Origin: a virus
Lineage: Duplodnaviria; Heunggongvirae; Uroviricota; Caudoviricetes
Virus record (IMG/VR): IMGVR_UViG_2740892218_000008
DNA: 18,168 nt
Reading direction: 5' to 3' (one strand)
Program-made: the position numbers
Shown here: in pieces, positions 16,701-18,168 of the stretch
How positions within the stretch are numbered: position 1 is the stretch's first letter
Layout of the letters: the number at the start of each line of letters is the position of its first letter

Positions 16701-18168
16701 ACAGGCTCCTTTTTTATTGTTCGCATTCACCCTCAAGCGTATTAACCAACAATTCAGGGATTAATGGAAGATGGCAGACATCATTGATTCAGCATCAGAA
16801 ATTGAAGAATTACAGCGCAACACAGCAATAAAAATGCGCCGCCTGAACCACCAGGCTATATCTGCCACTCATTGTTGTGAGTGTGGCGATCCCATAGATG
16901 AGCGAAGACGCCTGGCCGTTCAGGGTTGTCGGACTTGTGCAAGTTGCCAGCAAGATCTGGAGCTTATCCGCAAACAAAGGGGGATTAAGTGATGGCTAAC
17001 CTGCAACTTGCTGTTAAAAGTGAATACTTCGATGCCATGATTCGCGGAGAGAAAACGGAAGAGTATCGCCTTGTTAATGACTACTGGAAAAAGCGCCTCG
17101 TTAACCACGAGTATGGCAGTCTGATCATCACGAAGGGATATCCGAAGCGCGACGATTCCAGCCGCAGAATTGATGTTCCGTATGACGGATATGAAATCAA
17201 GACAATCACACATCCGCACTTCGGTGATAAACCGGTAAAGGTGTTCGCGATAAAGGTGAATATCGGCAATGAATAACAATCCTCGCACTCGCGGGGATTT
17301 CTTTTATCTGAACTCGCTACGGCGGATTTTGTTTTATGGAGATGATAAATGCACTTCCGAGTCACAGGTGAATGGAATGGAGAACCATTCAACAGAGTTA
17401 TCGAAGCAGAGAACATCAATGACTGCTATGACCACTGGATGATATGGGCGCAGATAGCACATGCAGACGTAACCAATATTCGAATTGAAGAACTGAAAGA
17501 ACACCAAGCCGCCTGATGGAGGTTTTTTCTTGCGTGTAATTGCGGAGACTTTGCGATGTACTTGACACTTCAGGAGTGGAACGCACGCCAGCGACGCCCA
17601 AGAAGCCTTGAAACAGTTCGTCGATGGGTACGCGAGTGCAGGATATTCCCACCACCGATTAAGGATGGAAGAGAGTATCTGTTCCACGAATCAGCGGTAA
17701 AGGTTGACTTAAATCGACCAGTAACAGGTAGCCTTTTGAAGAGGATCAGAAATGGGAAGAAGGCGAAGTCATGAGCGCCGGGATTTACCCCCTAACCTTT
17801 ATATAAGAAACAATGGATATTACTGCTACAGGGACCCAAGGACGGGTAAAGAGTTCGGATTAGGCCGAGACAGACGCATAGCAATCACTGAAGCTATACA
17901 GGCCAATATTGAGTTGCTATCCGGGAGCAGGCGTGAGTCACTGATAGACAGAATTAAAGGCGCTGACGCAATCACTCTTCATGCGTGGCTTGACCGATAT
18001 GAAACAATCCTCAGCGAGAGGGGTATCAGGCCGAAAACTCTACTCGACTACGCCAGCAAAATCAGGGCAATCTGAAGTGGCACACTGAATTTGGCCACCT
18101 GAACAGAGGTGATATGCTCACCTCAGAACAACACAGGTGCTCCAATGAAAAAAAGAAATTTTAGCGCA

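Follow-up and report, generated by a model that had tools for sequence, protein, structure and literature searches.

The right-hand end of the lambdoid prophage analysed here raises the question of whether a transposable element has locked the prophage into the chromosome of its host. The integrase gene (int) breaks off within an insertion sequence (IS), close to the last base of the 18,168-bp stretch of DNA under study (hereafter the window). A sequence-only reading of the window had proposed that an IS911-like element of the IS3 family truncates int after codon 107 and that the prophage is probably unable to excise using its own Int. Both junctions of the insertion, the short repeat flanking it, the rest of int and alleles with an empty site have now been found. 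We consider it very probable that insertion of IS911 between int nt 321 and 322 truncated the Int of a lambdoid prophage residing at mdtA, and that the capacity of this prophage for its own excision was presumably lost with it.

IS911 belongs to the IS3 family, transposes by a copy-out/paste-in route and was first described in Shigella dysenteriae. Members of the family are distinguished by the fusion of orfA and orfB through a programmed -1 frameshift (A AAA AAG), from which a DDE (rve) transposase results.

Source of the window

The window is the entire contig BBVI01000034.1 of the draft genome GCA_001514645.1 of Escherichia albertii NIAH_Bird_13. According to the strain list supplementing Ooka et al. 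2015 (PMC4700944), contigs BBVI01000001-BBVI01000063 belong to this strain, which was obtained in Japan in 2005, the host being a brown-eared bulbul. Ten further proteins of the window, looked up by exact sequence, are on record under E. albertii names, with runs of consecutive accessions. The draft was assembled from MiSeq reads with Platanus, a short-read de Bruijn assembler. Because an IS is a repeat that short reads cannot bridge, the contig ends 96 nt into IS911. The exact 107-aa product of the truncated int is on record for this one contig only. Positions of the features discussed below are collected in Table 1.

Table 1. Features of the xis-int-IS911 region and positions of the IS3-family junctions compared in int. 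Positions refer to the window unless another locus is named.
Feature	Position	Strand	Basis or remark
xis (excisionase, 72 aa)	17556..17774	+	ORF; Pfam Exc (PF07825), E 1.1e-40; annotated as excisionase in HK022 and E. coli homologues
int ORF, ATG start, 107 codons and TGA	17752..18075	+	ORF call; Pfam Arm-DNA-bind_1
int codons 1-107, complete arm-binding domain and about the first third of the core-binding domain	17752..18072	+
Left copy of the 3-bp flanking repeat, ATC	18070..18072	.	Window reads GGGCAATC/TGAAGTGG; right copy, GTC, on BBVI01000021.1
TGA stop of truncated int, bases 1-3 of the IS911 left end	18073..18075	+
IS911 left terminal inverted repeat (IRL), 36 bp	18073..18108	+	Pattern match; comparison of IRL with IRR in a full copy
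IS911 left 96 nt, up to the contig end	18073..18168	+	Identity to full IS911 copies
IS911 orfA, first 8 codons (MKKRNFSA)	18145..18168	+	Same orientation as int
Junction at the shared int site, window	18070-18077
Junction at the shared int site, L035 (BBVI01000021.1)	nt 92-102
Junction at the shared int site, L008	nt 21-36
Junction at the shared int site, L007	nt 1-13
Junction at the shared int site, L005	nt 3930-3950

The truncated integrase gene

The 3' end of xis overlaps the start of int, an arrangement also seen in lambda and HK022. In the truncated Int product the N-terminal arm-type DNA-binding domain is present (Arm-DNA-bind_1, PF09003; E 1.2e-29). The product aligns without gaps and from end to end with residues 1-107 of the lambda Int structures (1z1b, E 9e-53), and its residues 1-62 match the structures of the isolated lambda Int arm-binding domain (1KJK/2WCC). 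The reading from sequence had described int as matching lambda Int for 107 codons; the gapless alignment bears this out, but the protein is of the HK022 type. It shares 106/107 residues with Int of phage HK022 and 107/107 with an Int of E. coli CP039404 that adjoins mdtA, whereas its identity to the lambda-type Int found at the ybhC site is 78% over the 107 residues, and it is identical to lambda Int only across the first 55 residues.

At the break the window reads GCA ATC (codon 107) and then TGA AGT GGC, where uninterrupted homologues read GCA ATC CGA AGA AAA TTG. Since bases 1-3 of IS911 (TGA) fall in frame after codon 107, the Int product stops at 107 residues. The earlier proposal that the first bases of an IS end supply this stop codon is thereby upheld, the 96 nt that begin with it being identical to a full-length IS911 copy at every position.

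Core-binding and catalytic domains are not combined in one polypeptide in the window, the ORF stopping at residue 107. PF22022 together with PF00589 was found only in the intact int genes of sister prophages, PF00589 occurring also in the separated 3' fragment of int described below. To judge from its coding sequence, the product of the window int is a gene fragment and not a functional member of the integrase family; in this it differs from HK022 Int, with which it otherwise shares the domain and gene arrangement given above. A further difference may lie in the integration site. The HK022 attB maps to about 22.7 min in E. coli and the complete int allele of the sister strains adjoins mdtA, so the site specificity of the two may differ.

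The left end of IS911

The sequence from position 18073 onwards is TGAAGTGGCACACTGAATTTGGCCACC, and the IS911-type terminal-repeat pattern that it matches occurs once in the window and in 0/200 shuffled sequences. All 96 visible nt of the element are shared with a full-length IS911 of E. albertii (CP030787.2; 96/96), and 95/96 with a copy in E. coli CP039404 annotated as 'IS3-like element IS911 family transposase'. Matches were found in 4,021 of 5,426 complete E. coli genomes, many of which contain copies that are 100% identical.

The start of orfA (ATG AAA AAA AGA AAT TTT AGC GCA) had been placed about 60 bp behind the int stop codon; start and encoded peptide, MKKRNFSA, were correct, and the spacing from the TGA is 69 nt. 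The same eight residues begin the annotated IS911 transposase CDS of the E. coli CP039404 copy and the 100-aa HTH_Tnp_1 product of the CP030787.2 copy. The latter copy, the left end of which is identical to that in the window, carries ATATTAAAAAAGG at the frameshift site as well as an ORF with the rve domain. In NIAH_Bird_13 the interior of the element, with frameshift site and orfB, is unassembled, and the comparison with IS911 covers the visible ends only.

The terminal repeats of IS911 are 36 bp long (PMC2909936). Imperfect terminal inverted repeats of this length, of the form 5'-TG...CA-3', were found here, the left one (IRL) in the window and the right one (IRR) on a second contig of the same assembly, BBVI01000021.1. 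As far as they are visible, the parts of the element are thus indistinguishable from IS911 (OrfA N-terminus, 96/96 on the left, 93/94 with the published IRR on the right); what differs is the flanking repeat, which has one mismatch here.

Two minor features of IS911 copies may be recorded. Between the inner edge of IRL and the start of orfA, at 18106-18124, there is a perfect 7-bp stem whose loop is 5 nt long (GAGGTGA tatgc TCACCTC); one possibility suggested by its position is that it controls read-through from int into the transposase gene. The copy in E. coli CP039404 (L002, nt 635-1882) is 1,248 bp long. Its frameshift motif has A5G, not A6G, and a run of A close to its right end is one base shorter than in the published primer sequence. 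These A-run differences could be homopolymer sequencing errors or could indicate a defective copy.

The right junction and the displaced half of int

A sister Int was cut at Met127, the start predicted for a gene caller if the 5' part of the gene is missing, and the exact 231-aa sequence was looked up. This fragment is on record, one carrier being BBVI01000021.1 (L035), a contig of the assembly to which the window belongs. The contig opens with 94 nt of the right end of IS911, 93/94 identical, of which nt 59-94 are exactly the published 36-nt IRR oligonucleotide CTCTAACTCGGTGGCCAGTTTTTGTTGACCACTTCA (PMC2909936). Across the junction it reads CACTTCA/GTC/CGAAGAAAATTG, that is, the end of IS911, GTC and then int as far as its stop codon. 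The int portion, nt 322-1074, has 0/752 mismatches to the intact int of a sister prophage and is followed by mdtA and mdtB. No int bases are missing across the two junctions, and the orientation of the IS is identical at both.

Extension beyond position 18168, which had been suggested as a check, thus yielded the IS911 right end, the GTC repeat and the remaining int sequence. The catalytic domain had been called missing. Neither the window nor the Int product includes it, but int codons 108-357, which encode the remainder of the core-binding domain and the complete catalytic domain (PF00589), persist unmutated on the far side of IS911. This coding sequence has been shifted by ~1.25 kb, away from the start codon of int, and has no in-frame start of its own, codon 127 being the nearest ATG inside it.

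A short direct target duplication flanks the element, 3 bp long with one mismatch (left copy ATC, right copy GTC; empty site GGGCAATCCGAAG). In the IS911 circle, 3-4 bp of flanking DNA lie between the abutted ends (PMC2909936). On the junction sequences, we read ATC and GTC as a 3-bp duplication with one mismatch; a 2-bp duplication with an extra G is also possible. Candidate causes of the imperfect repeat are a repair error, a later mutation or, under the second reading, the one additional base.

From the two junctions we infer that the window and BBVI01000021.1 are joined through one copy of IS911, in the order BBVI01000034 (3' end) - IS911 - BBVI01000021 (5' end), and two contig ends of the NIAH_Bird_13 draft are accounted for in this way. 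Both contigs stop ~95 nt into the element, which suggests that IS911 is present in several copies in this genome, and the two IS911-int junctions might now reside on different copies if recombination between IS911 elements had inverted or moved a segment and so separated the prophage body from the 3' part of int, attR and mdtA. Related prophages commonly show deletions and rearrangements bordered by an IS, among them L005, L031 and L042, in each of which the two flanks of an IS do not match, and the mismatch between ATC and GTC would be in keeping with such a history. However, the two junctions coincide to the nucleotide in int, agree in orientation and are flanked by a 3-bp repeat alike at two of its three positions, which is the signature of a single insertion; no observation demands a later rearrangement, and we regard one as improbable.

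It might also be supposed that the IS found at the end of the contig is an artefact of assembly, or derives from a minority subpopulation while most cells have an intact int, for contig ends located in repeats can be unreliable in short-read de Bruijn assemblies. Against this, reciprocal and correctly oriented IS911 ends are found on two separate contigs at the same position of int and with the flanking repeat, and the gene caller recorded both the 107-aa and the 231-aa fragments in the NIAH_Bird_13 assembly. An artefact or subpopulation of this kind is therefore very hard to credit, and a single insertion of IS911 into int is the reading followed below.

The empty site in sister prophages

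Sister loci were found through the 94-aa protein encoded in the window just upstream of xis. Ten loci were obtained, eight of which (L021, L023, L024 and L026-L030) share the gene order of the window from cII to xis. These eight E. albertii prophages are 99.48-99.96% identical to window positions 9992-18077; all of them carry GGGCAATCCGAAGAAAATTG in an uninterrupted int of 357 aa, followed by mdtA, mdtB and mdtC, and their Int proteins are identical in 8/8 cases. The empty site, too, reads ATC in 8/8 loci. The alignment with the sisters runs on to 18077 and stops there only because the next int bases, GAAG, coincide with bases 2-5 of the IS. With eight near-identical sister prophages retaining an intact int, the insertion is a strain-specific event.

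The junctions were also searched for elsewhere. Neither the left int-IS911 junction of the window nor the predicted junction of the IS911 right end with int occurs in any of the 5,426 complete E. coli genomes. The exact left and right junctions had no match in the GTDB species-representative genomes or the JGI metagenomes. In IMG/VR the right-junction pattern had no match, and the left-junction pattern had three, all of them chance matches in unrelated sequence. Since the junction is absent from the genomes and metagenomes scanned, the insertion looks recent and strain-specific.

Two further sister prophages have lost int integrity in other ways. In L022 (CP126908.1, nt 7565-8060) int is absent and a slightly shortened xis of 70 aa is followed directly by mdtA. 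The alignment with the window ends at 17754, and int has thus been lost from the same prophage lineage by another route as well. L031 (CP030787.2, nt 2443-3691) has a second, independent IS911 in the same int, at roughly codon 23. On the right this element is followed by TAC TGC TAC AGG; the DNA bordering it on the left does not belong to int, and ~440 bp upstream there is a NinE gene, which means that a deletion or rearrangement occurred there.

Consequences for excision

For excision in the lambda family, arm-type and core-type sites have to be bridged by a single Int polypeptide that also contains the catalytic tyrosine; on its own, the N-terminal domain of Int does no more than bind arm sites. 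In the sequence of events that we propose, IS911 would have been copied into int between nt 321 and 322, reading in the direction of the gene, in a prophage upstream of mdtA. The truncated Int would leave the prophage without a recombinase for the attL x attR reaction and hence incapable of excising by itself, and we infer from the gene structure that self-excision with its own Int has been lost. With cI, cro, cII, O, P, gam, bet, exo and xis full length, the prophage can probably still be derepressed on induction and begin to replicate in situ. Excision may be regained if int is restored by recombination with an intact copy or if the IS is lost precisely, or it may be provided by Int acting in trans from a co-resident phage of the same specificity.

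The predicted defect agrees with data on E. coli O157 Sakai, in which the lambdoid prophages Sp3, Sp11 and Sp12, with disrupted int genes, were predicted to be non-excisable and were not among the nine prophages with circular forms after mitomycin C (PMC2669165). Host species, prophage and IS differ between the two cases, and circles were assayed in Sakai whereas NIAH_Bird_13 is known here from sequence alone.

Provision of Int in trans deserves separate consideration, for if a resident or incoming HK022-type Int acts on the prophage, the insertion would be real and the prophage would nevertheless not be locked in. In O157 Sakai, defects in head formation, packaging and replication are complemented between prophages (PMC2669165), so that rescue in trans stays a live alternative. 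In NIAH_Bird_13 xis is intact, attR is expected between int and mdtA on BBVI01000021.1, and the break of the window contig inside the endolysin gene suggests that other lambdoid prophages of the genome share sequence with this one. Yet the int-disrupted prophages of Sakai were absent from those seen as circles (PMC2669165), and on balance we think rescue by a foreign Int unlikely. Loss of autonomous excision remains the preferred interpretation of the truncated int.

IS911, HK022-type Int and the insertional inactivation of a prophage gene are all already known, and the event is in these respects an ordinary one. It adds one more IS-inactivated prophage integrase, a standard step in the decay and fixation of prophages.

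A possible hotspot for IS3-family elements in int

The insertion site is of wider interest because the right end of an IS3-family element is found at the same nucleotide, GGGCAATC/CGAAG, in three alleles of int, two different elements of the family being involved. Besides NIAH_Bird_13, contigs labelled Shigella flexneri start with the IS911 right end, followed by AATC, a 4-bp flank, and then by CGAAGAAAATTG. The int allele in these contigs differs at 28-29/752 positions and adjoins a YjbH-family gene together with genes like wza, wzb and wzc, not mdtA. The third case is an assembly labelled E. coli/Shigella dysenteriae, in which an IS629/IS1203-like element of 1,310 bp ends with GGGGCGGTTCA and is followed by ATC and CGAAG; there the prophage adjoins mdtA and the int allele differs at 24 positions. 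The DNA to the left of this element is not int, and a deletion must have occurred there. As one contiguous match, the IS629-type junction was found in 0/5,426 complete E. coli genomes; two apparent full-length matches consist of pieces ~300 bp apart and so represent a different site.

Insertions elsewhere in this int family include the IS911 at about codon 23 in CP030787.2, an IS629-type end near codon 121 (P0112), a transposase-int fusion near codon 174 (P0011) and an IS ~300 bp upstream in two E. coli genomes. Three of ~8 independent events would thus fall at one nucleotide of a 1,074-nt gene, for which uniform insertion gives a probability of ~2e-5, the count being rough and the sampling unsystematic. 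A 6-bp palindrome, GGCAAT-N9-ATTGCC, spans the insertion site; such palindromes are common.

That the boundary of codons 107 and 108 in the HK022-type int is a true hotspot for IS3-family elements is a tentative suggestion, which we hold to be possible but rather doubtful. If it were true, target choice would be directed by sequence or DNA structure, and the site would be a natural target for studying how transposases choose their sites. Alternatively, and less likely, insertions here could be favoured by selection for an arm-binding Int fragment, which could compete for arm sites.

Several candidates were examined and rejected. Mimicry of IS ends by the target was discarded, the ungapped matches to the IS911 and IS629-type repeats being no better than those at 12-58% of other int positions. 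Three other truncated Int proteins do not represent IS events at this site: P0003 comes from a frameshifted int, and P0106 and P0111 have no IS upstream and probably carry point lesions. The starts of contigs L004 and L015-L017 were dismissed as evidence of IS boundaries, for these positions are variable and free of IS sequence.

The remainder of the prophage

Apart from the insertion, the window is collinear with the sister prophages and 99.9% identical to them. Positions 1-15070 match one sister at 99.95%, with 6 substitutions and one indel, the latter in a run of C at ~505, outside the ORFs examined. Immunity, replication, Red and lysis genes had all been described as looking intact. For the first three groups this was confirmed: cI (216 aa, with HTH and S24 peptidase domains), cro and cII are full length, as are the replication genes O and P and the Red genes gam, bet and exo. 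The same is true of cIII and kil, of the late control gene Q and of the nin region (NinB, Dam, NinG and a Metallophos-family phosphoesterase). In the case of lysis the description was too generous. The left end of the window (1-79) lies ~80 bp inside the endolysin gene, on the minus strand, and since the contig starts there, the holin is the only complete gene of the lysis cassette.

Sister prophages continue past this point with endolysin, Rz/Rz1, terminase, gpW and portal genes, and they differ among themselves in the small-terminase module (Nu1 versus DUF1441). The contig break on this side is probably the boundary of a repeat common to other lambdoid prophages of the genome.

Between Q and the nin region, on the opposite strand, lies a gene for a 319-aa lipid A deacylase of the LpxR family (4111-5070, +), which has the appearance of moron-like cargo. 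An identical LpxR-family protein is encoded on 140 contigs bearing names from E. albertii and Escherichia.
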